From the UHGV virus genome UHGV-0217156: DNA of 46,368 nucleotides; one strand, written 5' to 3'. Each line of letters opens with the position of its first letter. Position 1 is the stretch's first letter. Of the stretch, positions 1 through 45,434 are shown piece after piece. The notes beneath the pieces were generated by a model that was given only the letters and a program-made list of their open reading frames with translations, made no database searches and was not told the origin of the DNA. This DNA is from a virus. A program made the translations under genes and the position numbers.

Positions 1-2286
1 ATTTTTCACGAGGCGATTGAAGCCGTTAATGATGCCGCCAAACGTGCGGAGGAGGCCGGAGATAAGGCTATAGCTGCTGCGGATGAGGCCGAAAAAGCAG
101 CCACCCAGACAGCGGAGCATCTGCAAGCTACAGAGGGGCTTGCAGAGCAGGTAGAGACCAATGCCGACACTGTGGCACAGGATAAGCAGACTGTAACAGG
201 GATGCTCTCTCAGACCCAGCAGGCGGCCTCAGATGCGGCATTATCGGCACAGGCGGCTAAGTTATCAGAGATAGCCGCAGCACAGGCACAGACGGGCGCT
301 GAGGCGGCTGAGGATACAGCAAGACAGTACGCTGAGGAGACGGAGGCAGACCGGCAGGCAGTTGCCAATGATAAGCAGGTAGTTAGCCAGATGAGGGAAG
401 CAGTGGCGGCAGACCGTCAGGCGGTAGAGCAGACCGCTGCGCAGTTTGGACAGACCTCCCAAGACGCGCTTACAGCCATAGGGCAGGCTCAGAGCACAGC
501 TGTGGGGGATGTTAAGGCCGAGGGGCAAAAGCAGACCACAGCGGTACAGGAGGCAGGCACACAGGCGGTCAGTGAGGTTACTGAGGCCAAGACTACAGCA
601 GTGCAGGCAGTCACCACGGAGGGCGATACGCAGACCAAAAGGGTTGAGGATGCGGCTGCCGGGATCGTGGCGGATAGGGAGCAGATCAACCAGAATAAAC
701 AGGGGATTAGCGCCTTGCAGCAGACTGTCCAGGATGCACAGGAAAAAGTAGATGACATCGAAAGCACATTAAAACAGGCAGCATCTTTGGAGAGGGCGGT
801 GGAAAATTATTATGCCCTGAGGCGTACAGGGAAAGTATACCAAACGAAAATCTGGAAGTTTGATATCAATCCGACCAGTGCAGGAGAAAAGCTGCTTGAT
901 AATGCAGGGCTCGCTTGGGAACCATCAACAGATACAGTAAGAGGCGTGGATGATTATGCAGATATTCCTCTTTTTGAATGGAAAAATGTTAATTATGTCA
1001 GAGACCCAGACGGTACTCCTCGCCCTGTGGTTTTAGAAGGTGATTCAAACTATAAGACAAGCGGGTCTGTTGATGTTGGGACTATGCAAATGTCATTTTG
1101 GTGGGATTGGGACTCTTCCAATCCGGAATACGATCTCGTTACAATATCAGATATGCCACATCCGGAACTTGGACTTACGCCATGGCCGGAATGCGTAAAG
1201 GCAGATGGTACAGTGATGCCGTGGTGTATTGGCAGTAAATATTTTTCCGGTGTTGCGTCTGATGGACTTTTGAGATCCCAGCTAGGTTTGCCGCTTGCCA
1301 ATTTCCAGAGCCATAACAATATGATCGTCAACTATCAAAAAAAGGGCGAGGGATACTTGGGAGCAGGGGCTGTGCGAAATCTGTTCCAGATTGTGTTTAA
1401 CATCATAAAAGGAGCAACGAAAAACAGCCAGAGTCTTTATTCGGGATGCACGTCCTATAACTGGCAGTACGATGCAAGCATAGAACGCAGCACGAAAGAG
1501 ACATATTTCCCGGTAACAAACGCACAGGCTGATAACATATTGGTTGGAAGCCGTGTCTATGTGGGATATGGGAGCGATAATAAGGGGGCGCTTAATAAAG
1601 ACCGTGGCGTTGAAACAATGAGGGCTTATGCAGACATGGCCAAAGTTATACGGATTGAGCCATTGGATGATGCCAATAAGGCGGTGTATTTAGATATTTC
1701 AGAGGGGTTTTCCACCACTCCGGTAGAGGTGACAGAAACTCTGCAATCCCCGATCATAATAAGTTCGATGCCGTGGGGAGCGGGAAATACAGATGCAGTA
1801 ATAGGTCATCACGATGGATCGGCTATATCCAACAGTGACGGAAAGCACCCGTACCGTGTCCAAGGGCGGGAATACGCCGTAGGATGCTATGCGATAGCAT
1901 CTGACACTGTGCTTGATTTTCAGCCCGACCATAGCAAAAACGTATATGTAGCAGAGAGAGGACTTGACCACAGCTCGACGGATACAGTTATAAAAAGCAC
2001 TTACCGCATGATTGGAAATATCCCTGCGCTTCCGGACGGAAAGGATTTTTGGATAGGAGATATTTCGGTAGACAAAAAGACCGGCGCATGGTTTGTGGCC
2101 AAAAAAGGAAGTGGAAGCACTCAGGGATATGGAGATATGCTTTATTCCGGCGGGACATCCACATCCGGAACCCGTGGATTTATGCAGGGCGGCAGTCTCT
2201 GGAGCGGCTCGTTCGCTGGTTGTGCGTTCCTGCACTGCGGGAGCAGGCTTGGCTGGGCTGGCTGGTACTTCGGCGGCTGCGATTAA
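1..2286 (+). CDS. Tail-fibre-like protein, 5'-truncated at the window edge; its C-terminal ~30 aa are the DGR variable region
   Basis: Frame 1 is open from base 1 through the listed 172..2286 ORF. N-terminal half is Ala/Gln/Glu-rich coiled coil; C-terminal half is Gly/Trp/Tyr-rich (lectin-like). The last 93 nt are near-identical to a downstream repeat, with A-specific differences. Confidence 0.8.
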   Translation: MFHEAIEAVNDAAKRAEEAGDKAIAAADEAEKAATQTAEHLQATEGLAEQVETNADTVAQDKQTVTGMLSQTQQAASDAALSAQAAKLSEIAAAQAQTGAEAAEDTARQYAEETEADRQAVANDKQVVSQMREAVAADRQAVEQTAAQFGQTSQDALTAIGQAQSTAVGDVKAEGQKQTTAVQEAGTQAVSEVTEAKTTAVQAVTTEGDTQTKRVEDAAAGIVADREQINQNKQGISALQQTVQDAQEKVDDIESTLKQAASLERAVENYYALRRTGKVYQTKIWKFDINPTSAGEKLLDNAGLAWEPSTDTVRGVDDYADIPLFEWKNVNYVRDPDGTPRPVVLEGDSNYKTSGSVDVGTMQMSFWWDWDSSNPEYDLVTISDMPHPELGLTPWPECVKADGTVMPWCIGSKYFSGVASDGLLRSQLGLPLANFQSHNNMIVNYQKKGEGYLGAGAVRNLFQIVFNIIKGATKNSQSLYSGCTSYNWQYDASIERSTKETYFPVTNAQADNILVGSRVYVGYGSDNKGALNKDRGVETMRAYADMAKVIRIEPLDDANKAVYLDISEGFSTTPVEVTETLQSPIIISSMPWGAGNTDAVIGHHDGSAISNSDGKHPYRVQGREYAVGCYAIASDTVLDFQPDHSKNVYVAERGLDHSSTDTVIKSTYRMIGNIPALPDGKDFWIGDISVDKKTGAWFVAKKGSGSTQGYGDMLYSGGTSTSGTRGFMQGGSLWSGSFAGCAFLHCGSRLGWAGWYFGGCD
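2188..2280 (+). repeat. DGR variable repeat (VR), 3' end of the tail-fibre gene
   Basis: 93 nt aligned without gaps to 2357..2449 at an offset of 169. There are 13 mismatches, and each one lies where the TR has an adenine. Confidence 0.85.
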
Positions 2287-2356
2287 AAGAAGGCCGTCGG
2301 GGGTGAATTTGCGAAGCAAAGAGGGGATCTCCCCTAAAATAGAGGACTCATGGTGT

Positions 2357-2449
2357 GGCGGCAATCTCAGGAACGGCTCGAACGCTGGTTGTGCGTACCT
2401 GAACTGCAGGAACAGGCTTGGCAGGGCTGGCTGGAACTACGGCGGCTGA
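2357..2449 (+). repeat. DGR template repeat (TR)
   Basis: Non-coding copy of the VR lying between the target gene and the RT. Read in the VR frame it is rich in AAC/AAT/TAC/AGG codons and ends in TGA where the VR has TGC. Confidence 0.85.
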
Positions 2450-2674
2450 TATTATCTATCTATTTTCCGCATTGGCGGCATTAAACCATGTTTCGCACTC
2501 GAAAAGAGTGTAACCGAAAGGTTCTCGGGCAGATGCCCAAAATTCTTTTTATAGGCCCGCCGGAGCCAGTAAAATGGCGAAGGAATACCGGTGCAGTAGG
2601 CCGGTGTTGTGGCTAGTAGAAAAACCGAAAACCATCGCAAAGATAATCGAAGAAAAATCAGAAGGTCTAAGAAT

Positions 2675-3847
2675 ATGAAAAAATACTGTAAAAAAGTAGA
2701 TATAACTGATAGGGCATTGATATCAAAATCAGTGCATCAATGCCTGGCAGATAAATTAAAACGCCGTGACACGTTACGGCTGCTGTCAAGTGTTACCGTC
2801 CTGTCTCCGGAGCAGATATATTATTTGCTATACCGGGGAGGGAAGATTGCGGTAGACTGGTGCATTGAGCGTGTGATAAATGATATTCACGCAGAGATCA
2901 TTGCCAGAAATCCTAAATTCCCGCCTATTTGGTACAAAAAGCGCAAGGATCCGTCCAGTGGGAAAAACAGGGAAATAGGAATCCAGGATGTAAAGCAGCA
3001 AATATATGATTATGTTGCTGTAAATGCATTAGAACCAATAGGCGTTCGGATCGGCGTCCATCAATATGCATCCATTAAAGGACGCGGCCCCGTAAGGGGA
3101 ATGAAGAAAATTTATAAATGGATGAGAGATAAAACCCTGCGCTATTATGGCAAATTCGATGTCAAAAAGTGCTTTGAAAGTATCAGCAGAGAAAAAATGA
3201 TGGAATTTCTTTCCCGGTACATTAAAAATGATCCGCTTTTGTGGCTTGTTGATACGCTCCTTAAAACGTTCCGGAAAGGATTGAGTATAGGATCTTACCT
3301 ATCTCAGTTTCTCTGCAACCTGTATATGTCTCAGCTTTATCACGAGATTTCAGAGCGGATGTACCATATCCGGAAGCGGAGAGCAGGAGGTGCAGAAAGA
3401 GTGAATCTGGTAAAGCATGTGTTGTTTTACATGGATGACATTTACATTACGGGAACAAATGCAAAATTGCTCAATATGGCTGCAAAAAGAATTGTATCCT
3501 ATGCTGCTAAAATGGGGATTACCATAAAACAGGAATGGACGATACAGCCATGTGGGGTTGTGGACATGATGGGATTTAAGATCTATCGCGATCATGTAAC
3601 GATAAGAAAACGCGTCTGGAAACGCATCCGGCGGGTGTATATGAGGACATACCGCAAAATAAAAACACATAAGCCCATACCGCTCTCAACGGCAAGGCGG
3701 TGTCTGTCATATAAGGGATTTTTTGATAATACAAGCAGCTTCAGGACTGTAGTAAAATATAAAGCCCGGGAAGTGGCCCGTGTGTGTAAAAGGAGGGTAT
3801 CATATGCCGACAAAAGCAAGGTTTTTCGATCCACAGCCACCTGTTAA
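2675..3847 (+). CDS. DGR-type reverse transcriptase
   Basis: RT motifs are present: IGIQDV...YASIKGRGP, FDVKKCFESI, LSIGSYLSQ (the DGR hallmark I-G-x-x-x-S-Q replaces the usual QGxxxSP), and FYMDD (YxDD). The ATG at 2675 follows GAAGG; an in-frame GTG at 2609 is an alternative start. Confidence 0.85.
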   Translation: MKKYCKKVDITDRALISKSVHQCLADKLKRRDTLRLLSSVTVLSPEQIYYLLYRGGKIAVDWCIERVINDIHAEIIARNPKFPPIWYKKRKDPSSGKNREIGIQDVKQQIYDYVAVNALEPIGVRIGVHQYASIKGRGPVRGMKKIYKWMRDKTLRYYGKFDVKKCFESISREKMMEFLSRYIKNDPLLWLVDTLLKTFRKGLSIGSYLSQFLCNLYMSQLYHEISERMYHIRKRRAGGAERVNLVKHVLFYMDDIYITGTNAKLLNMAAKRIVSYAAKMGITIKQEWTIQPCGVVDMMGFKIYRDHVTIRKRVWKRIRRVYMRTYRKIKTHKPIPLSTARRCLSYKGFFDNTSSFRTVVKYKAREVARVCKRRVSYADKSKVFRSTATC

Positions 3848-4103
3848 AGTGGTGGATGATGGGGGCTTTGTTTACATTTTTATATGTCTCAACGAGGAAC
3901 AAAAAACAGAAAAGTACGATGAGGAAACAACGTCATATCTGGAATATGATTACAACGAATTTAGAGAAGAAAAATCACAGATCGATCTTGAGGATGTGAT
4001 GAAAAACCCAGAGAAATATCTTGTTTACTCAGCGAAACAAGATAAGCAGGATATTGTTACACGTTTGGAAGCATTGGAAAAAAGAGTGTTGCAGGAGGGG
4101 TAA
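3804..4103 (+). CDS. Hypothetical acidic 99-aa protein between the RT and the lysin
   Basis: Strong RBS AAAGGAGGG before the ATG. The C-terminus has a coiled coil (DIVTRLEALEKRV) and there is no transmembrane segment. Confidence 0.5.
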   Translation: MPTKARFFDPQPPVKVVDDGGFVYIFICLNEEQKTEKYDEETTSYLEYDYNEFREEKSQIDLEDVMKNPEKYLVYSAKQDKQDIVTRLEALEKRVLQEG

Positions 4104-4106
4104 GCT

Positions 4107-4910
4107 ATGGAGATACGAAAAGAGATTAAGCAGATAAACTGTTACGCAGGTCAAAACCGTCCTGCATGGATTGTAATCCATGAGACGGATAATTACAGTA
4201 AGGGTGCAGGCGCGCTCAAACACGCTCAGGCCCATAAAAACGGCAACCTGTCCACCTCTGTGCATTGGTATGTAGACGATACGGTGGCTGTACAGACCTT
4301 ATATTACAGCGACGGTGCCTATGCAGTCGGTAGACAGTACGGTACGCCTCTGGTAGCAGGAGTAACCAACACAAACAGTATCAACATCGAGATCTGCGTC
4401 AATCCAGACTCTGATTACGATCAGGCCCGTGCAAACTGCATAGAGCTTGTGCGACAGATTATGGCAGAGCAGGAGATACCTGCCGATCATGTGATCCGGC
4501 ACTATGATGCCAAGCGCAAGCACTGCCCCCGTAAGATGCTGGATCAGCCGCAGTTATGGACAGGCTTCAAAGCAGCGTTGGCAGAACCAGATAAAAAAGC
4601 CGGCTGGCAGCAGGAAGATGGCGGTTGGCGGTATTATCTTGGCAACGGTCAGCCAGTCCGTAATGACTGGTACTGGCATGAGGGCAAGTGGTACTGGTTC
4701 GACGGCTCCGGCATGATGGTACATGATACATGGTACAAGTACAAGGATCATTGGTACTACCTGGGAGCAGACGGTGCTATGGTAACAGGCCAGCAGACCA
4801 TAGACGGTAAGTGGTACATCATGGATACTGAGGGCCGGATGATTACAGAGCCGGTGACGCTTACTCCGGATCAGGATGGGGCACTGAGATGGCCGGGGCT
4901 GGCGAAATAG
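4107..4910 (+). CDS. Endolysin: N-acetylmuramoyl-L-alanine amidase with C-terminal cell-wall-binding repeats
   Basis: Amidase_2/PGRP-type motifs (WIVIHETDN...HA; HYDAKRKHCP). The C-terminus carries W/Y-rich ~20-aa repeats (GWQQEDGGWRYY, GKWYWFDGSG, DHWYYLGADG, GKWYIMDTEG). Confidence 0.8.
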   Translation: MEIRKEIKQINCYAGQNRPAWIVIHETDNYSKGAGALKHAQAHKNGNLSTSVHWYVDDTVAVQTLYYSDGAYAVGRQYGTPLVAGVTNTNSINIEICVNPDSDYDQARANCIELVRQIMAEQEIPADHVIRHYDAKRKHCPRKMLDQPQLWTGFKAALAEPDKKAGWQQEDGGWRYYLGNGQPVRNDWYWHEGKWYWFDGSGMMVHDTWYKYKDHWYYLGADGAMVTGQQTIDGKWYIMDTEGRMITEPVTLTPDQDGALRWPGLAK

Positions 4911-4964
4911 GCTTTTATGGTGTAAAAAGAGCGGGCAAATTACACCTGCCCGCTCGTCATTATA

Positions 4965-5231
4965 TTATATATTTATCTCTTTATTTAGGGATAAATTGAT
5001 GCTTTTTAAATTTTCTCTATCTTCTTCGGTCTGGACAAATTCTAATAAATCTTTTGGCTGTAAATCCAAAATATTACAAATAGCATTTATAGCACCAAGT
5101 GTAATAGATGTATCTTCTTTTTTTAACTTATATAGCGTGTTTTGACTTATTAACCCACTTGTTTTTGCTTTGTACGTGTTAAATCCAGCACGCTGTAGTG
5201 CATCATAGACATTGATTTTATACTTTAGCAT
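4965..5231 (-). CDS. XRE-family helix-turn-helix regulator
   Basis: Cro/C1-type HTH (ISQNTLYKLKK...ITLGAINAICNILD). Divergent from the 5378 operon. Confidence 0.7.
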   Translation of the reverse strand: MLKYKINVYDALQRAGFNTYKAKTSGLISQNTLYKLKKEDTSITLGAINAICNILDLQPKDLLEFVQTEEDRENLKSINLSLNKEINI

Positions 5232-5296
5232 TTTAACACCTCCGTTTTTATAATAATAGCATATATGGCAAAGTGAAAAAAGTCAATAAAATATTT

Positions 5297-5346
5297 CTTT
5301 TAAAAGTGATAAAAACTATTGACATCTCTTTTAAAAGTGATATAAT
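5297..5346 (+). promoter_or_regulatory. Consensus promoter (TTGACA-16-TATAAT) carrying a duplicated 15-bp operator-like repeat
   Basis: TTGACA at 5319-5324 and TATAAT at 5341-5346. CTTTTAAAAGTGATA occurs twice (5297-5311 and 5328-5342), overlapping the spacer and -10. Confidence 0.5.
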
Positions 5347-5377
5347 GTAGTTACAACAAAGAACGGAGGAAATAGAG

Positions 5378-5794
5378 ATGAAAAAATATGACTTAAGCAA
5401 TATTATGAAGCAGGCTTGGAAGATGGTTAAAGAAATCGGATTGACTATTTCCGCCGCACTTAAAAAATCTTGGCAGGAGGCAAAGAAGATGAAAGATGAA
5501 GTTAAGAATGTAGTGGTAAAGAGTTTTTATGATTACAATGCACGTCGGTATGGCACACCGTGGGTGACTGTGATGGACGAGCAGGGTAAATACGATTTTA
5601 CCAAAAGAATCGGAACTTTTACCGGCAACGCTGATGATGGCGGGGATTTGATTGTATACGCTCCCGTAGTTGGCCAGGTATATGGCTACGGTCAAAAAGA
5701 TTACCGTGGTAACAATACCATTAAGCGGTTTTGCGTGTGGACCGAAAACGGTTTTGCAGAGTGTGATAAGATGGGTAAAATAAAGGAGGCGTAA
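5378..5794 (+). CDS. Hypothetical protein (138 aa)
   Basis: RBS GGAGGAAA before the ATG. No recognisable motifs. First gene of an operon downstream of the consensus promoter. Confidence 0.5.
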   Translation: MKKYDLSNIMKQAWKMVKEIGLTISAALKKSWQEAKKMKDEVKNVVVKSFYDYNARRYGTPWVTVMDEQGKYDFTKRIGTFTGNADDGGDLIVYAPVVGQVYGYGQKDYRGNNTIKRFCVWTENGFAECDKMGKIKEA

Positions 5795-5797
5795 TTG

Positions 5798-6085
5798 ATG
5801 AAAGAAATCAGCAGGAAGGAAATAGAACAGCAGGTTCGAGAGGAGCTTAAGGAAGCGAGAGCGTTCTGCTCTTATGGTTATGGAAGGTATTACACGATGA
5901 TGATTGATTTATCAGATGGGAGCATTTGGTCAGATCACTTCCTGGATTGCGAGACTTGGAAAGAATATCGCAGTGAAAGCATCGTGAGATTAAGCACCAA
6001 TGGCATGATTGATAATGTGGACAGTGCGTATATTGATGATGCCGTTGATAAGTTGACCACAGCAGGATGGATTGTCAAAAAATAA
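5798..6085 (+). CDS. Hypothetical protein (95 aa)
   Basis: RBS AAGGAGG before the ATG, which overlaps the upstream stop. Confidence 0.5.
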   Translation: MKEISRKEIEQQVREELKEARAFCSYGYGRYYTMMIDLSDGSIWSDHFLDCETWKEYRSESIVRLSTNGMIDNVDSAYIDDAVDKLTTAGWIVKK

Positions 6086-6181
6086 GCGGCTGCGTAACCG
6101 ACCAAAGTACACCGCAACCGCTACCAACTAAGGGCAGCTTCATTATATCATAGCTGCCCCTAACATTACAAGGAGAGCCGA

Positions 6182-7021
6182 ATGAAAAAGAAAGAAGTAA
6201 TAGTGGCTATATATATTAGGGTTAGCACCTTAGATCAAGCAAGGGAAGGCTATTCTTTGAAAATGCAAGAACAGACATTGCGTGAGTGGTGCAAAGAAAA
6301 AGGATATATCATTTATGATCTGTATGCCGACAGAGGCATAAGTGGAAAAGATTTTAATCATAGGCCTGATATGTTGCGCTTGATGCGTGATGCAAAGGAT
6401 GGGTGCTTTAATTCTGTGGTATTCTGGGCTTTGAGTAGATTTACCAGAAGCGTACAGGATTTGTATAATACATTAGATAAGTTCCAAAAATGGGGGGTGT
6501 CCATGGTGTCTTATACAGAGGCATTTGACACGTCTACACCTATGGGACGGGCTATGATCGGAATAGTCGGAGTCTTTGCGCAGCTGGAAAGAGAAATTAC
6601 CAGCGAAAGAGTAGCGGCTGCTATGCAGATGCGAGCAGCGCAAGGGAAACGAACCTGCAGTGAGATTTTGGGATATGATAAAAAAGGAAAAGACAGCTTT
6701 TCGGTCAATCCCCAAGAAGCAGAATATGTTAAATTTTGTTTTGAGAAATATTTGGAAAGAAAAAACCTGTCAGAAGTGGCTGAGTTATGTCGGCAACATG
6801 GTTATCGTGGAAAGCGCGGAAAAGAACCATGTGCATGGACGGTTTCCGTTATTTTGAGCCGTCCACAATACTGTGGATATAATCCGTATTGCGGAGAATA
6901 TTATAAAGGGGATTACGATCCCATAATATCGATAGAAACATACAACAAAGTACAACGATTGTTGGAAAGACAAGGCAAAATAGTAGGACGAAATAGAAGA
7001 AAGAGACTTATGCATTTATAA
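6182..7021 (+). CDS. Short serine recombinase (resolvase catalytic domain plus recombinase domain, no Zn-ribbon/coiled-coil)
   Basis: N-terminus YIRVSTLDQ...G with the serine-recombinase catalytic Ser. The recombinase domain follows. Length 279 aa and it is followed by a terminator, so it may be a truncated large serine recombinase. Confidence 0.7.
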   Translation: MKKKEVIVAIYIRVSTLDQAREGYSLKMQEQTLREWCKEKGYIIYDLYADRGISGKDFNHRPDMLRLMRDAKDGCFNSVVFWALSRFTRSVQDLYNTLDKFQKWGVSMVSYTEAFDTSTPMGRAMIGIVGVFAQLEREITSERVAAAMQMRAAQGKRTCSEILGYDKKGKDSFSVNPQEAEYVKFCFEKYLERKNLSEVAELCRQHGYRGKRGKEPCAWTVSVILSRPQYCGYNPYCGEYYKGDYDPIISIETYNKVQRLLERQGKIVGRNRRKRLMHL

Positions 7022-7363: not shown

Positions 7364-8935
7364 TTAAAGGACAATAGAAAGTTCTGAGCCATCCCAAACA
7401 CATTCCTTCAAGATATCTCTCATAATACGATTCTTTTCTTCGGCAGTAAATCCATTTAGTCCTTTCATGACATTTTGGATATGCTGCGCTTTGCCCTCGG
7501 CTGATTCATTTAATTCATCCCGTTTTTTGATTTCAACATTTATTACAGCTCTTTCACGCTTGAGAAATTGGAGATCAGAATCTAATCTCTCGATTTCAGC
7601 AACGATATATTTTGAGGCAGCTGAACCATCTGCGAGAGCCAGAGAGGATGCGAGCCGTCCGATTCGTAATTCTATGGAGGAAATTTTGTTATTGATTGTT
7701 TTGATATCCGGAAGAGGAAGCTCGCTTTTTTGGACAAAGCGGTAAATCATAGATGGATCGATCTCAATAGAGTGCAGAGTGTTGAGAAGCTTTTGGTCTA
7801 TGATATCAACTTTAATTTGTTTCCGATCACACGCCTCAACGCCATTCTTCATACGACGGAGGCAATAGTACCAGGATGATACCTCACCGTTTATCTTCTT
7901 TTTTCTCGATACGGCCATAATGGATCCGCAAGAACACCTAAGTATACCTTTAAGGAGAGGGATATCGTATTTCTGGGTTTTATCAAATTTATTTTCAGAA
8001 AATTGGTTTTGAACTGCAAGCCATTTGGCAGCGGGCATAAACGGTTTATGTAGGCCGAGGCAGACCAGCCATTTTTCGGGTGGTTGTAGCTGATGCTTTT
8101 TATTTACCCCTGTTGATCTACCATAAATCATAACACCTACACTGCCATCCCACTTTTCGCGAGGGGAATCAGGATCCATTTGACAGCCTTTAGCAGCAAA
8201 ATAGTCATATATCTCAGGTGTGGCTTCAACACAATAAGGCATGGTCAATATTTTGTACAACTGAGTGGTTGAGAAAAACGCCCCGTTTCGGGTTTTAATA
8301 CCCTCTTTTCGGAAATATGTTTCCATAGATTGTAGCGAACAATGATTCTTCAAAAATGAGTCATAGATCCATATGTTATATGCGACACCATCCGGATCTG
8401 GTTCGATCGTAACATGTTTTTTTCCATTGATAACGATATTTTTGCGTATATAACCATAGGGTGGGTTTCCACCGGTCCAAAATCCTTTTTTAGCCAGCCC
8501 TATCATATTGTCACGCACTCGCGTGGCAATGGTTTCCCGCTCCATTTGTGCAAAAACAACTGTGACATACATCATGGCTCTTCCGATCGGTGTAGTTGTG
8601 TCGATATTTTCCTTGATAGATATAAACATCACATGATATTCTTCCAACATGGCATAGATATTAGAAAAATCACGCACATCCCTGGATATTCTATCAAGCT
8701 GATAAACTACCAGAACATTGATTGCACCGGATTTTACATCTTCAAGTAGTCTCTGTAAATCTGGGCGTTTTGTGTTGGCTCCCGTGTAATCTTCGTCTGA
8801 ATATGATGTCACAAGGGTAATATCGTCAGCTTTAAAATGCGCTTTGATATAATCATTACACATCCGATGCTGGTTATCTACAGAATCAGACTTATCAGAA
8901 TAGACAGATTTTCTTCCATAAATTCCAAAAAACAT
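7364..8935 (-). CDS. Large serine recombinase (phage integrase)
   Basis: 523 aa with an N-terminal resolvase domain (YGRKSVYSDKSDS...), a recombinase domain, and a Cys-rich zinc ribbon (CSCGSIMAVSRKKK...WYYC) followed by a coiled coil. Confidence 0.85.
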   Translation of the reverse strand: MFFGIYGRKSVYSDKSDSVDNQHRMCNDYIKAHFKADDITLVTSYSDEDYTGANTKRPDLQRLLEDVKSGAINVLVVYQLDRISRDVRDFSNIYAMLEEYHVMFISIKENIDTTTPIGRAMMYVTVVFAQMERETIATRVRDNMIGLAKKGFWTGGNPPYGYIRKNIVINGKKHVTIEPDPDGVAYNIWIYDSFLKNHCSLQSMETYFRKEGIKTRNGAFFSTTQLYKILTMPYCVEATPEIYDYFAAKGCQMDPDSPREKWDGSVGVMIYGRSTGVNKKHQLQPPEKWLVCLGLHKPFMPAAKWLAVQNQFSENKFDKTQKYDIPLLKGILRCSCGSIMAVSRKKKINGEVSSWYYCLRRMKNGVEACDRKQIKVDIIDQKLLNTLHSIEIDPSMIYRFVQKSELPLPDIKTINNKISSIELRIGRLASSLALADGSAASKYIVAEIERLDSDLQFLKRERAVINVEIKKRDELNESAEGKAQHIQNVMKGLNGFTAEEKNRIMRDILKECVWDGSELSIVL

Positions 8936-13651: not shown

Positions 13652-13842
13652 GGGAGAGGAAAAGAATAAAAAGGATCTGCACAGCAGCAACTGTAACAGA
13701 TCCTGACACATTGAGCGTAGACCCTGACCGGTTTACGCTCAGACCTTATGGTCCGCGAAAAATAACCATATATAAAGTATACGGCGGCCATAGGGGAAAG
13801 TCAAGGAAAACAGCGGTGAAAACCGCTTATATCACTTGTTAA
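13648..13842 (+). CDS. Hypothetical basic protein (64 aa)
   Basis: ORF overlapping its neighbours by 4 nt. Confidence 0.35.
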   Translation: MRERKRIKRICTAATVTDPDTLSVDPDRFTLRPYGPRKITIYKVYGGHRGKSRKTAVKTAYITC

Positions 13843-13874
13843 GGTTATTATCTTATCGACAGGAGAGGAACGGA

Positions 13875-14621
13875 ATGCCGTATTACACATGGGAGGCACG
13901 GGCAGGGATCACAATGAGTATCTGTAATTACCATGATAGATCCAGACCGGAGCCGGGAATGGAGAGGCGCAAGAAGACGAAGCCCACACCGGAATCCCAG
14001 AGAAAGAACAATATGCGCAGGGCAGCCCAGAGGTTGACACTGGATCTGAATGAGAACTTCGGTCCAGACTGCTGGTACCTTACATGGAACTACAGCCCGG
14101 ATAAGCGCCCAAAGGATAGGGCGGAGCTGCTGCAGCAGGTAAGCAAAACCCTGAGGAAGCTCCGGAATATATATAAAAGATCAGGAAAGCCCCTGAAATA
14201 TGTCTGGGTTCCGGAAGTGGGGCCAAGAGGAGCCTGTCATATCCATATCGTGGTATCTGGGATTACCCTGAACCTGATCCGGGATGTATGGATCTATGGG
14301 GGAATGTATATAGAACCCCTGAGGAAAGACCGGAACTACCGCCAGCTGGCAGAATACTTCGTGAAATACTCGGAGAAGACAAGACAGACCTACGGGGGAA
14401 AGCAGGCGGGGCGTTATAACCCCAGCAGGAACCTGACCCATGTGAAGATAGAGCGGCGCCGGAGGAGAAAGAAGACCTTTGCCGCAGATGAGATCAAAGT
14501 CCCGGAAGGCTGGTATCTGGACAAGGGCAGCGTACAGGAGTGGATTAACGATCAGGGTTACAAATACCTGTACTACATTCTGGTACAGATCGAAAGGGGG
14601 CCGGAACGATGCAGGACGTGA
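13875..14621 (+). CDS. HUH-superfamily rolling-circle replication initiator (Rep)
   Basis: Motif I WYLTWNY, motif II GACHIHIVVSG (HUH) and motif III YFVKYSEK (Y-x-x-K). RBS AGGAGAGGAA before the internal ATG. Confidence 0.55.
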   Translation: MPYYTWEARAGITMSICNYHDRSRPEPGMERRKKTKPTPESQRKNNMRRAAQRLTLDLNENFGPDCWYLTWNYSPDKRPKDRAELLQQVSKTLRKLRNIYKRSGKPLKYVWVPEVGPRGACHIHIVVSGITLNLIRDVWIYGGMYIEPLRKDRNYRQLAEYFVKYSEKTRQTYGGKQAGRYNPSRNLTHVKIERRRRRKKTFAADEIKVPEGWYLDKGSVQEWINDQGYKYLYYILVQIERGPERCRT

Positions 14622-15049
14622 ATATCTACATAGCGGGTACGATCCATGGCCCTGCCAAAAAGGCAGGAGGATATCTCTATATCCTGGAATGCTTCCGAGG
14701 CGGACAGGCGGTCACTCTGGAAAAATCAGTATGGATGGAGAACGCCACGGAAAACCAGCTGGCGCTTACTGCCCTTGGGGAGGCCCTTGGGCGGATCAAC
14801 TGCCCCTGCAGCCTTAGGATCTACACAGACTGCCAGCACATCATCCATGCCATGAGAAACAGCTGGGCCAGACAGTGGCAGAAAAACGGGTGGAGGAACG
14901 CCAAGGGGAAAGCGATTAAAAATGCGGATCTGTGGCAGGTGGTTTTAGAACAGCTGGATACCCATCTGTATACCTTTACAGACGAGCCCCATACCTACAG
15001 CCAGTGGATGATAGATGAACTCGAACGGGAGGGGGAGAAGCATGGATAA
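14609..15049 (+). CDS. RNase H-like protein (RNase HI fold), probably degenerate at the first catalytic Asp
   Basis: Clear RNase HI similarity (GPAKKAGGY; IYTDCQHIIHAMRNSWARQWQKNGWRNAKGKAIKNADLWQ). The first catalytic Asp motif reads IYIAGT, whereas RNase HI as recalled from memory has IFTDGS. Confidence 0.65.
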   Translation: MQDVNIYIAGTIHGPAKKAGGYLYILECFRGGQAVTLEKSVWMENATENQLALTALGEALGRINCPCSLRIYTDCQHIIHAMRNSWARQWQKNGWRNAKGKAIKNADLWQVVLEQLDTHLYTFTDEPHTYSQWMIDELEREGEKHG

Positions 15050-19971: not shown

Positions 19972-20183
19972 TGGATCTTATGACAGAAGCCAGGAGCATA
20001 GAAAGCAAGCCGGGCGGCGAACCGGTGGAGCGGATTGGACGCTATCAGAATGGGAACCGGATCTATATATTCTATCGGGGAAATACAGGAAATATCTGGT
20101 ATGAGACCCGGTTCCTGATGGGCGAAAAGGAAGTTTCGGAATATGAATCCATTTTTGGAGAAAGGAAAAGAAAAAGACGATGA
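19971..20183 (+). CDS. Hypothetical protein (70 aa)
   Basis: ORF in a coupled array. Confidence 0.4.
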   Translation: MDLMTEARSIESKPGGEPVERIGRYQNGNRIYIFYRGNTGNIWYETRFLMGEKEVSEYESIFGERKRKRR

Positions 20184-20614
20184 ACCGAGTAATACTGATG
20201 GGACGCCTTACACGGGATCCGGAAGTGAGATGGTCGAGAGGAGAAAGGGCGATAGCAATCGCAAGGTACACTCTGGCGGTAGACCGAAGAGGCCGCAGGA
20301 ATCAGGAGGGAAATTTTAAACAGACTGCTGATTTTATCAACTGCGTGGCATTTGACCGTGCTGGGGAATTTGCAGAGAAGCATTTCAGTCAGGGGCAGAG
20401 GATACTGATATCTGGACGGATCCAAACCGGAAGCTATGTCAACAAGGATGGACAGAAGGTATATACAACAGAGGTCATAGTAGATGAGCAGGAGTTTGCG
20501 GACAGCAGAGGCCATTCCGCACCGACGGAAAGACCAGCACAGGGAACCGATATCGGGGATGGTTTTATGAGCATCCCTGAGGGGATAGAGGATGAGGGAC
20601 TGCCATTTACTTAA
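20180..20614 (+). CDS. ssb: Single-stranded DNA-binding protein
   Basis: MNRVILMGRLTRDPEVR...OB fold...GQKVYTTEVIVDE. Acidic C-terminal tail ending DEGLPF. Confidence 0.8.
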   Translation: MNRVILMGRLTRDPEVRWSRGERAIAIARYTLAVDRRGRRNQEGNFKQTADFINCVAFDRAGEFAEKHFSQGQRILISGRIQTGSYVNKDGQKVYTTEVIVDEQEFADSRGHSAPTERPAQGTDIGDGFMSIPEGIEDEGLPFT

Positions 20615-37776: not shown

Positions 37777-38175
37777 TCAATGCATTTGAATTTTAGAAAT
37801 AAGAGCTTCCTGGAGTACCTGAGAAAAGTTGAGCCCCATAGAAGTTGCGGCTTCGTTTAACCACTCTGGAATGGTAAGCGTTTTTTTGACGGCTTTATTA
37901 TTATACATTTTTCGGTAAGCCATGGTATCACAGGCGATAAAATTAACAAATTCATTTTCAGATACTGTAATAGCCGTAGGAACAGATGCTTTGGGGATTT
38001 CTCGCCCCTCTTTTTCGTACCCATAGAGAGTGAGAGCCAAGGCATCCTCGGCCATTTCGATTCCATCTTCCAGACTGTCTCCACAGGTGTAGCAACCTTC
38101 TAAGTCTGGAAAAATAATGGAATAGGTACCATCCTCTTCAAGAGTAAAAACTGCGGGATAAGCATATTTGAACAT
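37777..38175 (-). CDS. hicB: HicB-family antitoxin
   Basis: MFKYAYPAVFTLEEDGTYSIIFPDLEGCYTCGDSLEDGIEMAEDAL (HicB/UPF0150 N-terminal fold) and a C-terminal DNA-binding region. Followed on the minus strand by a terminator hairpin (CCGCCTAT/ATAGGCGG plus U-run). Confidence 0.75.
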   Translation of the reverse strand: MFKYAYPAVFTLEEDGTYSIIFPDLEGCYTCGDSLEDGIEMAEDALALTLYGYEKEGREIPKASVPTAITVSENEFVNFIACDTMAYRKMYNNKAVKKTLTIPEWLNEAATSMGLNFSQVLQEALISKIQMH

Positions 38176-40761: not shown

Positions 40762-41058
40762 ATGGATCGAAAATTTAAAATTGATGTTGAAGGAACGGAA
40801 GAAGAGAAGGAATTGCTCCGGACACTGACAACCCTTTTTTCTACACGGGCAGGAAGCCAGCCGGCAGACCGGGAGTTCGGAATCGACTGGAGCTGTATGG
40901 ATGAACTGCCGGAAGTAGCGGAAAGCCTGTTCGCATTGGAAGCGTATAGAAAAGTTGAACGCTATGAACCAAGGGTTGAAATCAAGGATATCAAATTTGA
41001 AAATACACAAGGGGTACTGTGCCCTTGTATTTATTTTGCCAGAAAGGAAAACGCTTGA
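40762..41058 (+). CDS. Baseplate wedge protein, gp25/GPW family
   Basis: 98 aa with a gp25-like pattern (REFGIDWSCMDELPE...YEPRVEIKDIKF). Confidence 0.6.
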   Translation: MDRKFKIDVEGTEEEKELLRTLTTLFSTRAGSQPADREFGIDWSCMDELPEVAESLFALEAYRKVERYEPRVEIKDIKFENTQGVLCPCIYFARKENA

Positions 41059-42200
41059 TGGAAGGAATTGAAAGGCTGAAAAACTATCCGGACGTAACGT
41101 TTATTGAAGCGATCAGCTTTGAAAAATTAAAAGAAAGCATGATAAGCGATTTTGAAAAACGGTACAGGGAACTGACCGGAAACACCATGACACTGGCGGC
41201 GGCAGACCCATACCGTCTGATTTTGTATGCCTGTGCGGTGGCGATTTACCAGGGATATCAATATACTGACAAAGCAGGAAAGATGGGACTGCTAAAGTAC
41301 AGTACAGGGGACTTTCTGGATAATCTTGCAGCGCTTAAGGGTATCACACGAAATGAAGCTGTTCCGTCCAGAACAACGATGAGGTTTACATTATCGGCAG
41401 TCCAGAGCAGAAAGGCTGTTATCCCAAAAGGAACACGCCTGAAGGGACAGGAATTGTATTTTGAAACAGTGGAAGAAGGTGAGATACCGGCAGGAGAATT
41501 GACAACAGACGTTCCAGCTGTATGCCAGACCGCAGGGGCAATAGGCAACGGATACAGAGAAGGAGATATCACAACTCTGGTAGATCCACTGCCATTTAAC
41601 GCAAAAGTATCCAATGTAGAGATTACGGATGGAGGAGCGGACCGGGAAGAGGATACAGATCTGGCGGAACGTATCTATCTTGCCCCGTCCAAATATTCGA
41701 CGGCCGGGCCTGAACCGGCATATGAATACTGGGTGAAGACATACAGCTCTGCTGTTGACGAATGCAGAGTGATAACGGAATCTCCGGGTGAGGTAGATAT
41801 TTATATTATGGTAGACGGTAAATTGCCGACAGAATCCTTTATAAAAGAACTGACGGAAAAACTGAAGAATGGAGAGCAGAGGCCATTAACGGATCATGTA
41901 GTGGTCAAGGCTCCGGAAACGGTAAAGTATGAGATCGATTTTACGTACTATATTCGGTCTTCGGATAGGGATATGGTGGATACGATCCAGAAGGCAGTGA
42001 AGAATGCCTGTAATAATTTTATAGCATGGCAAAATAAAATCGGAAAAGATATTACGCCATCGCAGCTGATCAGCGAAATTATGCAGGCTGGCGTCCAGTC
42101 AGTAGAGATTAAAAAACCATCCTATACAGAAATCTCCGATTCTCAGATCGGCATTACTTCTGAACCAGTAATTACTTATGGAGGTCTTAGGGATGGTTGA
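41058..42200 (+). CDS. Baseplate J-family protein
   Basis: ATGA overlap with the gp25-like stop. ~380 aa with Baseplate_J-like composition; the longer GTG start in the track is unlikely. Confidence 0.75.
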   Translation: MEGIERLKNYPDVTFIEAISFEKLKESMISDFEKRYRELTGNTMTLAAADPYRLILYACAVAIYQGYQYTDKAGKMGLLKYSTGDFLDNLAALKGITRNEAVPSRTTMRFTLSAVQSRKAVIPKGTRLKGQELYFETVEEGEIPAGELTTDVPAVCQTAGAIGNGYREGDITTLVDPLPFNAKVSNVEITDGGADREEDTDLAERIYLAPSKYSTAGPEPAYEYWVKTYSSAVDECRVITESPGEVDIYIMVDGKLPTESFIKELTEKLKNGEQRPLTDHVVVKAPETVKYEIDFTYYIRSSDRDMVDTIQKAVKNACNNFIAWQNKIGKDITPSQLISEIMQAGVQSVEIKKPSYTEISDSQIGITSEPVITYGGLRDG

Positions 42201-43152
42201 GTTTTTACATGGAGAAATAAAAGACATTCTGCCTCACAATCTGCTTACGCCGGAAATATACTCGATCAGTTATGCGGTAGGAGAGGCGATGAGACGCTGG
42301 GGACGTTTCTGCGCATCTGTACACCTGTATGCAGAAATAAGCTGTGTTCCGGAAGAGGCACTGGATTTGATGGCAATAGAAATGAATACCCAGTATTACG
42401 ATCAGTCAATGAACCGGAAGATGAAGGAACAGTTGATTATGCAAAGCCTGGTCTGGCACTTGCGGGCAGGAACCCCTTCTGTGCTTAATGAATTCCTGGC
42501 GACTGTATTGGGAGGAGGATATATAGAGGAATGGATGGAGTATGATGGGGAGCCCTATCATTTCCGAGCCTACGCCAAAGTGGATGAAGGGATGGAGGTC
42601 CCTTTGGGATATGTAACAGAAATAAAGCGGCAGCTGAATACATACAAAAATGTACGATCATGGCTGGAAGATTTCTTCCTGATGATACAGACTGCGGTAA
42701 CAGAAACGATCGAAGTAAGCAGCCAGCTGGAACTATTCACAGAGTTTTATGCAAGGAACAACAGAGCCTATCTATTACTGGATGGGAGCTGGGATCTGGA
42801 CGGCCTCTATTATCTGAATGGATATAAGACAGAAAATATGGATCTGTATCCGGTACGGCTAAGAATTTCAGGAGAAATTCCGGTGACAATTACGTGTGGA
42901 AAAGATTCTGCCATGCAGGTAGAAAGCCGTGCAAACTTGGAATTGGCAGCAGAAGCAATTTTTGATGTAACAGGACAGGCTGTTCAAACGATTTACATAG
43001 AGGACTGCTTGGGAATAGTAGGAAAAACAGAAATTGGATGTGAAGCAGCAGGGCACTTGAGGGTAGAAAACAATCTGTGGTATTTGGATGGAACATATTT
43101 GTTAGACGGAACAAAAATATTAAATGCGCAAATTTTTGACTATGACTTATAG
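42193..43152 (+). CDS. Tail protein (P2 gpI / XkdU-like, putative)
   Basis: ATG with RBS GGAGG 8 nt upstream. Position follows baseplate J. Confidence 0.45.
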   Translation: MVEFLHGEIKDILPHNLLTPEIYSISYAVGEAMRRWGRFCASVHLYAEISCVPEEALDLMAIEMNTQYYDQSMNRKMKEQLIMQSLVWHLRAGTPSVLNEFLATVLGGGYIEEWMEYDGEPYHFRAYAKVDEGMEVPLGYVTEIKRQLNTYKNVRSWLEDFFLMIQTAVTETIEVSSQLELFTEFYARNNRAYLLLDGSWDLDGLYYLNGYKTENMDLYPVRLRISGEIPVTITCGKDSAMQVESRANLELAAEAIFDVTGQAVQTIYIEDCLGIVGKTEIGCEAAGHLRVENNLWYLDGTYLLDGTKILNAQIFDYDL

Positions 43153-43166
43153 AGAGGAGAATGGAT

Positions 43167-43553
43167 ATGCCAAATGGAGTAATTACAGAGATCGGGAGAA
43201 AGAAACTTTGCAAAGCACACGCAGGAGATGTTACGCTGCCTAAAATAACTCAAATGGCGTTTGGGAGCGGTGGCGTTAATCCGAGTGGGGAAGTGATCGC
43301 GCCAACAGGAGCAGAAACCGCTCTGAAAAAAGAAATATTGAAAAAGAACATTGGCGGCCATATGTATACCAATGAAAAGGAAACTTCCTGCCGTTACACT
43401 GCCCGTTTGGAAAAAGAAGAACTTGCAAATCAGAGTATTTCTGAGCAGGGGCTGTTTGACGAGGATGGAGATCTGGTTGCGTATATAACATTTTTGCCTA
43501 AAGGAAAAGATGAGGGTATGGTGTTTATTTTTGATATGGATGAAATTTTCTAA
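43167..43553 (+). CDS. Tail-collar fibre-like protein
   Basis: RBS GAGAGGAGAA. N-terminal GVITEIGRKKLCKAHAGDVTLPKITQMAFGSGG pattern. Confidence 0.5.
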   Translation: MPNGVITEIGRKKLCKAHAGDVTLPKITQMAFGSGGVNPSGEVIAPTGAETALKKEILKKNIGGHMYTNEKETSCRYTARLEKEELANQSISEQGLFDEDGDLVAYITFLPKGKDEGMVFIFDMDEIF

Positions 43554-43566
43554 GGAGGATTTACAT

Positions 43567-43977
43567 ATGGCAGACTTACCGATCACGGAAAACCCGCAAT
43601 TTTCAGAAACGATGGAGGCACTTACACCTCAGGATCGGGCAGAACCGCAGACATTTGACATACGTTATCAGAAGCTGCTGGATAATGATAATTATTTAAA
43701 AAAGAAAATAATGGGACGAAAAAATATTGTTTTTTTAGCAGCAGGCTGGACAGGAGAGGGATCGTTTAAACAGACGGTTAGCGTAGAAGGAATTACAGCA
43801 GAGGATGTCCCCGTTCCTGCGTTTGTGGACGACGGAGGAAATGAAGCAGAAAGCAAGGCAAAAAAGAAAGCATATGGTTGTATTACATATTTTGAAAGCA
43901 GCGATGGAACTGTAACAGCAGTTTGCAATTACAAAAAACCGGAAGCAGACTGCACAATTGAGCTGAAGGGAGTGTAA
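43567..43977 (+). CDS. Hypothetical tail-fibre-associated protein
   Basis: RBS TAAGGAGGA before the internal ATG. Confidence 0.4.
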   Translation: MADLPITENPQFSETMEALTPQDRAEPQTFDIRYQKLLDNDNYLKKKIMGRKNIVFLAAGWTGEGSFKQTVSVEGITAEDVPVPAFVDDGGNEAESKAKKKAYGCITYFESSDGTVTAVCNYKKPEADCTIELKGV

Positions 43978-43981
43978 GCAT

Positions 43982-45420: not shown

Positions 45421-45434
45421 GAGGAGGTGAGTAT

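Follow-up and report, generated by a model that had tools for sequence, protein, structure and literature searches.

The window analysed here, a 46,368-nt stretch of DNA from a virus (UHGV-0217156), carries a diversity-generating retroelement (DGR) consisting of a target gene that ends in a variable repeat (VR), a non-coding template repeat (TR) and a gene for a reverse transcriptase (RT). These parts and their neighbours are arranged as follows.

45995 to 46368, plus strand: 5' part of the target gene, which continues in frame at position 1 (about 886 aa in total)
1 to 2286, plus strand: remainder of the target gene, with its TAA stop at 2284-2286
2188 to 2280, plus strand: VR, at the C-terminal end of the target gene, with 12 diversified codons
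2271 to 2286, plus strand: IMH-like 3' boundary of the VR, made up of the GC-rich CGGCGGCTG common to the TR, then CG (AT in the TR), then ATTA
2299 to 2308, plus strand: box GGGGGTGAAT downstream of the VR, conserved across the family
2308 to 2320, plus strand: hairpin 1, TTTGC-GAA-GCAAA, a GNA triloop closed by C-G; candidate target-site hairpin or cruciform
2321 to 2335, plus strand: hairpin 2, GAGGGG-N4-CCCCT, VR-linked, conserved in position and with variable loops across the family
2357 to 2449, plus strand: TR, non-coding, with 19 adenines
2675 to 3847, plus strand: DGR reverse transcriptase, 390 aa, with LSIGSYLSQ and FYMDD and with RVT_1, PHROG 1423 and Brt matches
3804 to 4103, plus strand: small acidic ORF, 99 aa, pI 4.5, overlapping the RT 3' end by 44 nt

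An earlier note, made from the sequence alone, had described a gapless VR/TR alignment of 93 nt with 13 differences, every one at a TR adenine, and both statements were reproduced on realignment. The two copies start 169 nt apart with 76 nt between them, and the chance that 13 mismatches would all fall on the 19 adenines among the 93 positions is 1.0e-11. The substitutions, previously given as five to G, seven to T and one to C, were recounted as A>T seven times, A>G four times and A>C twice. It had also been stated that no non-adenine position differs until homology ends; this is true within the 93 nt but not beyond, as the final adenine mismatch (A2449>C2280) is followed by a non-adenine mismatch (T2450>G2281) and then by four bases, ATTA, that still match. 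As every related VR has the same C2280 and G2281, we read these two positions as the IMH/IMH* boundary rather than as products of mutagenesis. The AT (TR) versus CG (VR) difference is kept across the RT family, and 2271-2286 is best regarded as a putative IMH-like end in which the AT of the TR would act as IMH*. This assignment is modelled on BPP-1 (PMC3240598), whose IMH comprises (GC)14 plus 21 bp, whereas the GC-rich tract here is far shorter. With its adenines masked, the TR pattern matched two places in the window, the VR and the TR itself, where 0 were expected. The VR spans 31 codons near the 3' end of the target gene, with two codons remaining after it. Read in the VR frame, the TR gives GGNLRNGSNAGCAYLNCRNRLGRAGWNYGG*, and its adenines lie in six AAY, four AGG and two TAC codons, from none of which a stop can be reached by mutation.

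Judged by its sequence, the enzyme encoded after the TR is a DGR-type RT. The two motifs on which this had first been recognised, LSIGSYLSQ and FYMDD, are both present, and the protein matched Pfam RVT_1 (1.9e-16) and PHROG 1423 (1.3e-60), with Bordetella Brt as the best match in the PDB (8ub7, E 7.8e-9). The alignment to BPP-1 Brt that had been proposed as a check gave 24% identity over 228 aa in BLASTP (E 2e-14). Among the matches listed, IGS[YFC]LSQ occurred in 120/120 RT homologues and QGxxxSP in 0. A tblastn search with the RT led to DGR-bearing phages, namely those of Bordetella, LBR48, FP_Epona, the crAss-like cr55_1 and Bacteroides phages. Because MK[KR]YC is conserved across the family, the RT start was set at ATG 2675; gene callers give GTG 2609.

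The target gene had been placed within 1-3847, but its start is at 45995 and it extends past the window ends. The reading frame stays open where the two parts meet (45995-46368 joined to 1-2286), and four relatives (L001-L004) keep the same order over this junction; the window is a circular permutation, with the target ORF running through its ends. The product consists of an Ala/Gln-rich coiled-coil segment followed by a conserved C-terminal domain of about 500 aa. Its N-terminus matched PHROG 16164 (E 6e-51) and the protein also matched PHROG 17147 (E 1.8e-81), both families of unknown function. No Pfam family was matched by the protein, none of its more than 3000 homologues carried a Pfam domain, and similarity to Mtd of BPP-1 was not detectable; homology to a tail-fibre or receptor-binding protein family was thus found neither in Pfam nor in PHROG. 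Its gene is located between those for the holins and the endolysin, with recognisable fibre-like genes at 43161-44857. In some relatives the target homologue follows tail genes (for example DUF859 in L011), and one homologue is annotated in Blautia wexlerae. The proposal that the receptor-binding tip of a tail fibre is diversified therefore stands as far as the C-terminal tip of a phage protein is concerned, while the tail-fibre identity is without a family match. We infer that the target is a fibre-like protein with a probable receptor-binding function, of which the 31-residue C-terminal segment is presumably the ligand-binding tip. Regarding the phage itself, megablast of positions 1-6000 against 50,697 INPHARED phage records gave no match, and the GTDB species genomes held no close RT relative, with only 34-50% identity in MAGs of Eubacteriales, Blautia and Bacilli. 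The host is probably a Clostridia or Lachnospiraceae-like bacterium.

Activity was assessed by comparing contigs from different samples. Nine near-identical phages or prophages keep the TR nearly invariant while their VRs differ. In nine intact related loci each VR departs from its TR at 8-16 positions, all of them TR adenines, so that the search for non-adenine mismatches suggested earlier yielded 0 in these loci as well as 0 in the 93-nt repeat of the window. Even pairs of loci with 0/600 upstream and 0-1/600 downstream flank differences had VRs that differ at 9-12 positions. Over 140 TR-adenine sites the VR base was A 55, T 41, G 35 and C 9 times. The target protein falls in a 90%-identity cluster of 1012 sequences; the C-termini read from it (14/14) were all distinct, with the same 12 codons varying. 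TR substitutions at the non-adenine columns 51 and 72 were mirrored in the cognate VR. That VRs differ only at adenine sites, even beside identical 600-nt flanks, indicates that the DGR is active in nature and bears out the earlier suggestion of adenine-directed mutagenic retrohoming. Further afield, the target-TR-RT layout persists at 34-60% RT identity.

A covarying RNA structure takes in approximately 300 nt around the TR, as found by comparative analysis of 19 diverse loci in two RNA alignments (A2 and A4). Its elements are listed below.

2349 to 2354, plus strand: 5' strand (CAUGGU) of the TR-bracketing duplex, pairing with 2485-2490
2451 to 2457, plus strand: TR 3' flank AUUAUCU, pairing with AGAUAAU at 2641-2647; candidate template side of a priming duplex
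2485 to 2490, plus strand: 3' strand (ACCAUG) of the TR-bracketing duplex, pairing with 2349-2354
2491 to 2650, plus strand: structured spacer RNA, as aligned in A2 and A4
from 2491, plus strand: spacer start UUUCG, preceding P1
2495 to 2511, plus strand: spacer helix P1
2512 to 2523, plus strand: spacer helix P2
2527 to 2538, plus strand: spacer helix P3
2539 to 2554, plus strand: single-stranded AAAAUUCUUUUUAUAG
about 2555 to 2583, plus strand: variable hairpin P4, recognised by eye only
2584 to 2608, plus strand: spacer helix P5
2609 to 2635, plus strand: spacer helix P6, with the loop UAGUAG...CGAAA
2641 to 2647, plus strand: AGAUAAU
2648 to 2650, plus strand: near-invariant CGA, just before the RT start

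The model has 8 helices with 46 pairs, 37 of which show changes on both sides; in this model 86% of cells were paired, and 33-44% after sliding. Over A2 and A4 together, 86-89% of cells were paired, compared with 33-46% when the partners were slid, and the covariation score of 0.52-0.55 (versus at most 0.12) was reached by 0/500 shuffles. For the TR-bracketing duplex, changes on both sides were seen in 9/10 pairs of A4 with 85-90% of cells paired. The TR 3' flank helix was 89% paired, and one of its pairs (A4 131/372) occurs as G-C (11 sequences), A-U (6) and U-A (1). RNAalifold also proposed that UUUC (2491-2494) pairs with GAAA of the RT start, a pairing that never varies. The structure is revealed by comparative analysis alone, as the fold of the single sequence was no better than that of shuffles (z -0.8). 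A search of the entire window against Rfam gave no match at the gathering threshold, and positions 2280-2720 gave none even with E values up to 10. A local hairpin right after the TR (GATA/TATC, GAAATT/AATTTC), weighed as a minimal priming duplex, is not supported, its stems being no longer than those of shuffled AT-rich sequence.

The elements immediately downstream of the VR behave differently from the TR flanks in that they are VR-linked: where VR and TR lie 740-1834 nt apart, the GGGGGTGAAT box stays with the VR and not with the TR, and a VR-linked counterpart of hairpin 1 with a GAA or GTA loop was found in most family members. BPP-1-type DGRs require, 4-34 bp past the VR, a GC-rich hairpin whose loop is GRNA (Guo 2011, PMC3240598), and the stem lengths and loops of hairpins 1 and 2 differ from that consensus. 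By analogy, the two hairpins may play a role in target recognition. Hairpin 2 was reported as terminator-like on the minus strand only.

The element shares with BPP-1 (mtd-avd-TR-brt) the adenine-specific transfer from TR to VR, the placement of the VR at the very 3' end of a structural gene of a phage, an RT with IGxxxSQ and YMDD that is related to Brt, a GC-rich, putatively IMH-like VR end with candidate target-site hairpins downstream, and RNA flanking the TR that pairs with sequence lying upstream of the TR as well as with its 3' end. In the BPP-1 RNA these pairings are the cPRT Stop duplex, between the upstream-of-TR region and the spacer, and the template:primer duplex, in which the spacer pairs with the TR 3' end (10.1101/2023.10.23.563531). 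Candidates for both are present and covarying here, and the two duplexes that would clamp the TR resemble the BPP-1 stop and priming duplexes, arranged as a pseudoknot. Cis-priming may take place at the 3' duplex (2451-2457 with 2641-2647). The analogy is inexact, because the clamping duplexes cross here, with their spacer strands in opposite order, whereas those of BPP-1 nest; the 3' duplex has its spacer strand at the far 3' end, adjoining the RT start. Furthermore, the spacer is about 225 nt long (140 nt in BPP-1), the RT has 390 aa (328 aa in BPP-1), and both an avd gene and an Avd-binding stem-loop directly after the TR are lacking.

The earlier note had seen the classic BPP-1 layout in this locus, which does not hold: the order is target-TR-RT, with no avd detectable between VR and TR or elsewhere. 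A Pfam scan gave no match for the flanking ORFs or for 20 further small or early-region ORFs of the window, and the genes called in 13 related loci included no PF05635. Conservation among Avd proteins is poor, and an Avd-like helper that is divergent or encoded by the host may therefore act on this element; the DGR is putatively independent of Avd. In its adjacent upstream target and in lacking avd, HRDC, MSL and CH1, the cassette agrees with Architecture A (A1: target, TR-RT) of Wu et al. 2018 (PMC5758913), who found 75/372 DGRs without accessory genes, recognised an avd-less "Lineage 3" and proposed Avd-independent homing. The conserved RNA structure found here is not described in that survey (PMC5758913), and the RNA survey of Handa et al. 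took in only Avd-containing DGRs (10.1101/2023.10.23.563531). DGRs of gut and Firmicute phages (LBR48, FP_Epona, human-gut MT835469 and others) have RTs related to this one at 25-48% identity (tblastn). In Lactobacillus phage LBR48 the RT likewise lies near lysis genes and is followed by an overlapping small ORF, which is not homologous to the acidic ORF here.

Taken as a whole, the locus is best explained as a functional DGR free of accessory genes (target-VR, TR and RT) in a circularly permuted, temperate, myovirus-like phage of about 46 kb from a gut Firmicute, a reading to which we assign a probability of roughly 93%. A partial duplication of the gene 3' end beside an unrelated RT (of a retron, Abi/DRT system or group II intron) is effectively refuted. 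Although the RT draws weak NCBIfam and PADLOC matches to group II, retron and DRT models, these score far under the model cut-offs (63.8 versus 300 bits, 27 versus 235), which together with the motif conservation upholds the earlier assignment of the RT to DGRs; the adenine-only pattern recurs in 51 of 67 RT-bearing IMG/VR loci, and msr/msd-like or intron RNA is absent. It is also quite improbable that the cassette is a recently inactivated relic whose VR/TR pattern stems from past retrohoming. The lineage does lose its DGR, since 3/12 close relatives (L002, L008 and L010) have a collapsed VR-TR, but all parts are intact here: the RT ORF retains its YMDD, and the TR, the IMH-like end and all conserved RNA helices are in place. 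Moreover, the TR of the window has a private adenine (AAC at 2381-2383, AGC in relatives) at which the VR is already mutated (TTC), so retrohoming must have taken place after that change in the TR.

Whether Avd has been replaced by another protein bears on the acidic ORF at 3804-4103, which we think unlikely to be an accessory factor that substitutes for Avd in this DGR lineage. In favour of such a role, the ORF follows the RT, overlapping its 3' end, in 66/67 RT-bearing IMG/VR loci with 38-54% identity, and an acidic accessory protein, CH1, is known solely from DGRs without avd, HRDC and MSL (Wu et al., PMC5758913). However, CH1 has 160-169 aa and belongs to a Bacteroides lineage (PMC5758913), the 99-aa ORF matched nothing in Pfam, PHROG, PADLOC or the PDB, and in 12/80 loci it directly follows a target homologue with neither RT nor TR within 6 kb. 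The ORF thus travels with the target gene and not with the RT, and it is probably target-linked rather than a DGR component.

In the favoured reading of a functional DGR, the transcript spanning the TR and its flanks would fold so that both ends of the TR are clamped by the spacer (2349-2354 with 2485-2490, and 2451-2457 with 2641-2647). The RT encoded just downstream would then copy the TR to cDNA, misincorporating opposite the 18 adenines of the AAY, AGG and TAC codons. This cDNA would replace the VR at the end of the fibre-like gene, guided by the GC-rich IMH-like end and probably also by the hairpins just downstream, and up to about 1.5e10 variants of the C-terminal segment could result. 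More tentatively, and at somewhat less than even odds in our estimation, this Firmicute-phage DGR family (more than 1000 RT homologues) performs mutagenic retrohoming with RT and RNA alone. In that case, the pseudoknotted RNA of about 300 nt that clamps the TR ends may also wrap the RT start codon, and may do the scaffolding and priming work of Avd and the Avd-binding stem-loop in BPP-1.

With tens of thousands of gut-phage DGRs already catalogued, and with architectures free of accessory genes on record, an element of this kind was to be expected. As a representative of a well-known class it is unremarkable, its chief peculiarities being the lack of an Avd gene and the large conserved RNA structure around its TR. 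To our knowledge, everything that is known structurally and biochemically about DGR reverse transcription comes from the Avd-dependent Bordetella system. The covariation-supported RNA model makes priming and termination of cDNA in Avd-less DGRs directly testable. If the recurrent fusions of VR and TR are real, they point to a simple way in which such phages lose the element. The family supplies an Avd-less cassette that is compact (about 1.6 kb between the TR and the RT stop), abundant and active in nature, and is a candidate for a simpler targeted-mutagenesis tool. If RT and RNA alone indeed suffice, it would count as a minimal DGR of two components and could be reconstituted and engineered more easily than that of Bordetella.

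Realignment upheld the gapless pairing, described in the earlier note, of the variable repeat (VR) at the 3' end of the target gene with the template repeat (TR) downstream. The two form an ungapped 93-nt direct repeat with 13 mismatches, each of which lies opposite an adenine of the TR. With adenine at 19 of the 93 TR positions, the probability that 13 of 13 mismatches fall on adenines by chance is 1.0e-11. The seven A to T substitutions counted previously were found again, while the five A to G and one A to C became four and two on recount. The adenine-masked TR pattern matched twice in the 46-kb window, at the VR and the TR themselves.

Diversity-generating retroelement (DGR) cassette of the window
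45995-46368, continued at 1-2286: target ORF
2188-2280: VR
2299-2308: box GGGGGTGAAU, family-conserved, downstream of the VR
2308-2320: hairpin with GNA triloop, family-conserved, downstream of the VR
2321-2335: GGGG-N4-CCCC hairpin, family-conserved, downstream of the VR
2357-2449: TR
2675-3847: reverse transcriptase (RT) ORF, starting with ATG, 390 aa
3804-4103: small ORF, 99 aa, pI 4.5

When the reading frame of the upstream ORF is applied to the TR, the translation is GGNLRNGSNAGCAYLNCRNRLGRAGWNYGG followed by a stop codon. Its adenine codons comprise six AAY, four AGG and two TAC, from which no stop codon is reachable, and its coding capacity amounts to 6.9e10 DNA variants and 1.5e10 peptide variants. 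This codon composition is a design typical of DGR templates. At the 3' end, the final mismatch (A2449/C2280) is followed by a difference at a non-adenine (T2450/G2281) and then by ATTA in both repeats. Since the CG at the VR end is fixed in every related VR, these last two differing bases probably represent the IMH/IMH* boundary (the terms used for the 3' ends of VR and TR in BPP-1, the Bordetella phage with the reference DGR) and not mutagenesis.

Two routes, an IMG/VR scan with the adenine-masked TR and the look-up of a 97%-identical RT, yielded 12 distinct close relatives, several of them prophages beside Asp23, NusB and XseAB genes. VR and TR were intact in nine of the 12, and each VR differed from its own TR at 8-16 positions, none of them a non-adenine. 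Loci with virtually identical surroundings nevertheless carried different VRs: L001 and L003 differ at 12 VR positions but at 0/600 nt upstream and 1/600 nt downstream, and L005 differs from L006, L007 and L009 at 9-11 VR positions with 0/600 differences in both flanks. Changes in the TR were lineage-specific only and had been copied to the cognate VR, as seen for column 51 (C/T) and column 72 (T/G) in both repeats. The window TR has a private extra adenine (AAC at 2381-2383, AGC in relatives), and its VR is mutated there (TTC). Over 140 TR adenine sites, the VR base was A in 55 cases, T in 41, G in 35 and C in 9. The target protein belongs to a 90%-identity cluster of 1012 distinct sequences; in all 14 members whose C-terminus was read the VRs were different, with variation at the same 12 codons. 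VRs that vary at TR adenines only, beside a nearly constant TR, bear out the proposed adenine-targeted mechanism and are the hallmark of mutagenic retrohoming that is active in the lineage, as judged from contig comparison and at lineage level rather than in the window's own sample. The earlier interpretation, that an active DGR diversifies the tip of a fibre-like phage protein at its C-terminus, is essentially correct.

Three related loci (L002:153-244, minus strand; L008:4597-4688; L010:2974-3065) contain a single hybrid repeat, in which the 5' part of the VR with its flank is joined to the 3' part of the TR with its flank. Each has lost one repeat unit, the 169 nt from VR to TR; its target ends in GG instead of GGCD, and no two share a crossover point. 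Either the DGR is lost recurrently through recombination between VR and TR, or the hybrids are products of assembly collapse.

The RT was said to be of the DGR type on account of its LSIGSYLSQ and FYMDD motifs, and this assignment held. The protein matched Pfam RVT_1 (1.9e-16) and PHROG 1423 (1.3e-60), and its best match among all PDB sequences was Brt, the BPP-1 RT (8ub7, E 7.8e-9), with IGSLTSQ aligned to IGSYLSQ. Direct BLASTP against Brt gave 24% identity over 228 aa (E 2e-14), while scores against group II intron, retron and DRT models were far under the cut-offs. IGS[YFC]LSQ was present in 120/120 of the best RT homologues and QGxxxSP in 0/120. Taken together, these results argue against the clustering with group II intron, retron or Abi RTs that the earlier note had named as contrary evidence. 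A tblastn search of phage genomes led to known DGR carriers: Bordetella phages, Lactobacillus LBR48, Faecalibacterium FP_Epona, crAss-like cr55_1 and Bacteroides phages. Gene callers place the RT start at GTG 2609 (412 aa); the family-wide N-terminus MK[KR]YC begins at ATG 2675, and the RNA structure described below extends to 2650.

The window represents a circularly permuted temperate phage genome; the target ORF runs off the window end and continues in frame from position 1, a junction across which four IMG/VR relatives are collinear. The target protein (~886 aa) consists of an N-terminal domain matching PHROG 16164, an Ala/Gln-rich coiled-coil middle and a conserved C-terminal domain of ~500 aa matching PHROG 17147; both PHROGs are families of unknown function, and no Pfam domain was found. 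Two AlphaFold runs gave pLDDT <50 over the VR, fold and profile searches for relatives of the variable domain found nothing, and the only likeness to the Mtd VR seen was a GGx[WL]xxGSxAG resemblance. The genome further encodes terminase, portal and head protein; sheath, tape measure and baseplate proteins; an XhlA-like protein, an r1t-type holin and an amidase with choline-binding repeats; two serine recombinases and a CI-like repressor; and Rep protein, RNase H and SSB. The module of target, TR, RT and small ORF is embedded in the lysis cassette, preceded by the XhlA-like and holin genes (45082-45665) and followed by the amidase endolysin gene (4107-4910). It is outside the baseplate/fibre module (41019-44857), where tail-fibre-like genes are recognisable at 43161-44857. 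In some relatives the target gene comes after tail genes. The designation tail fibre is therefore a reasonable presumption, drawn from the protein architecture and the relatives with the gene after tail genes; it is no established identity, given the matching families of unknown function and the holin-endolysin position.

Several other features of the genome were recorded. Directly upstream of the target gene lie a very basic 55-aa ORF (45756-45920; MANATGKRADKRTAEQRKNDAAQKRRPKG...), which had no family match and is kept in relatives as a 55-67-aa gene, and then a GC hairpin with a T-run (45948-45975). The RNase H gene (14609-15049, plus strand; PF00075, E 4.9e-13) belongs to the replication module, beside Rep (13836-14621) and near SSB (20180-20614); a role of this enzyme in processing the DGR cDNA:RNA hybrid is conceivable. 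The tape-measure gene and the tail gene that follows it are separated by an oppositely oriented HicB-like antitoxin gene (37777-38175, minus strand; PF15919, E 1e-13), likely a moron. A probable operator lies in the intergenic region at 5291-5354, where inverted repeats overlap an imperfect direct repeat of 31 nt; it is flanked by an ORF at 5378-5794 and a divergently oriented Cro/CI-type HTH gene (4965-5231, minus strand). The adjoining serine recombinase genes (6182-7021, plus strand, only 279 aa; 7364-8935, minus strand) are oppositely oriented, whereas the close relatives L005-L010 end at ToxN and host genes or have a tyrosine integrase, which indicates that the lysogeny module has been exchanged.

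The gene order had been called the classic BPP-1 layout, which is mtd-avd-TR-brt, and this description did not hold. In BPP-1, avd (encoding the accessory protein Avd) lies between mtd and the TR, whereas the VR-TR gap of the window is only 76 nt. No Pfam match to Avd (PF05635) was found in the ORFs around the cassette, in 20 further small or early-region ORFs of the window, or in the called genes of 13 related loci (50-97% RT identity). According to Wu et al., who proposed that homing can be Avd-independent, 29% of DGRs are without accessory gene (Architecture A; PMC5758913), so the window layout is a known architecture.

The small ORF overlaps the RT 3' end, shows 38-54% identity among relatives and had no match in Pfam, PHROGs, PADLOC or PDB. 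CH1 was considered and rejected, being 160-169 aa long and from a Bacteroides lineage (PMC5758913). An IMG/VR scan found relatives of the ORF in 80 loci. The RT was present in 67, in 66 of which it shares its last 7-40 nt with the ORF. The other 13 were without RT or TR within 6 kb, and in 12 of these the ORF directly follows a target homologue, which indicates that it belongs with the target gene; the TR-RT unit is located between the two. Its product may perhaps be an assembly factor or partner of the target protein. In these 12 loci (L033-L038, L040-L042, L044, L045 and L057; around 4200-6650 in each), the target homologue has a C-terminus resembling a diversified VR, e.g. GGNLGGSSSAGFAYLACWNGLAWASWGFCAAD, and the small-ORF homologue is sometimes 144-218 aa. 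Four of the RT-less loci lie on 100-170-kb contigs. All 12 may be remote targets, served by a DGR at another site of the phage, or former DGR loci.

A hairpin/cruciform shortly after the VR is a requirement in BPP-1 (PMC3240598). The GGGGGTGAAU box and both hairpins stay with the VR when VR and TR are set 740-1834 nt apart by an intervening gene, and this linkage makes the elements at 2299-2335 candidates for a counterpart, although their stems and loops are unlike the published GRNA consensus (PMC3240598).

An alignment of 19 diverse family members, starting 25 nt before the TR and ending at the RT start, revealed a conserved structure with many compensatory changes.

RNA elements around the TR
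2349-2354 with 2485-2490: TR-bracketing duplex, CAUGGU immediately upstream of the TR with ACCAUG; ~9 bp, 9/10 tested pairs changed on both sides
2451-2457 with 2641-2647: TR 3'-flank duplex, AUUAUCU with AGAUAAU, then a near-invariant CGA and the RT start
Between the duplex strands, in order: UUUCG, hairpins P1-P3, conserved single-stranded AAAAUUCUUUUUAUAG, variable hairpin P4 (identified by eye only), P5, P6
P6: loop UAGUAG...CGAAA

Over 46 pairs, 86% of cells were paired, compared with 33-44% for slid partners; the covariation score was 0.55 versus at most 0.12, and 0/500 shuffles reached the observed values. In one pair of the 3' duplex, 11 sequences have G-C and 6 have A-U. A search of Rfam gave no match to the structure. 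In some relatives the RT ATG overlaps the CGA, so that translation initiation may be coupled to RNA folding.

By cryo-EM of BPP-1, Handa et al. described an avd:Sp duplex upstream of the TR ("cPRT Stop"; Sp, the spacer RNA 3' of the TR) and a TR:Sp template:primer duplex, in which cDNA priming takes place at Sp A56. The DGRs in their conservation survey all had Avd (bioRxiv 10.1101/2023.10.23.563531). The two duplexes of the window are the obvious analogues of these. In contrast to BPP-1, however, their spacer strands, which enclose most of the structured spacer, occur in opposite order, making the fold a pseudoknot, and there is no stem-loop at the position of the Avd-binding one. We infer that priming of cDNA synthesis would occur at the 3' duplex or beside it; the position of this duplex, two nucleotides past G2448 (the last base that VR and TR share), fits the observed homology boundary.

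The DGR of the window is of a very well-known kind, and its accessory-free architecture has been described before. What the present analysis adds is a model, supported by covariation, of the RNA in a large family without Avd, and the demonstration that the ORF following the RT is not specific to DGRs.
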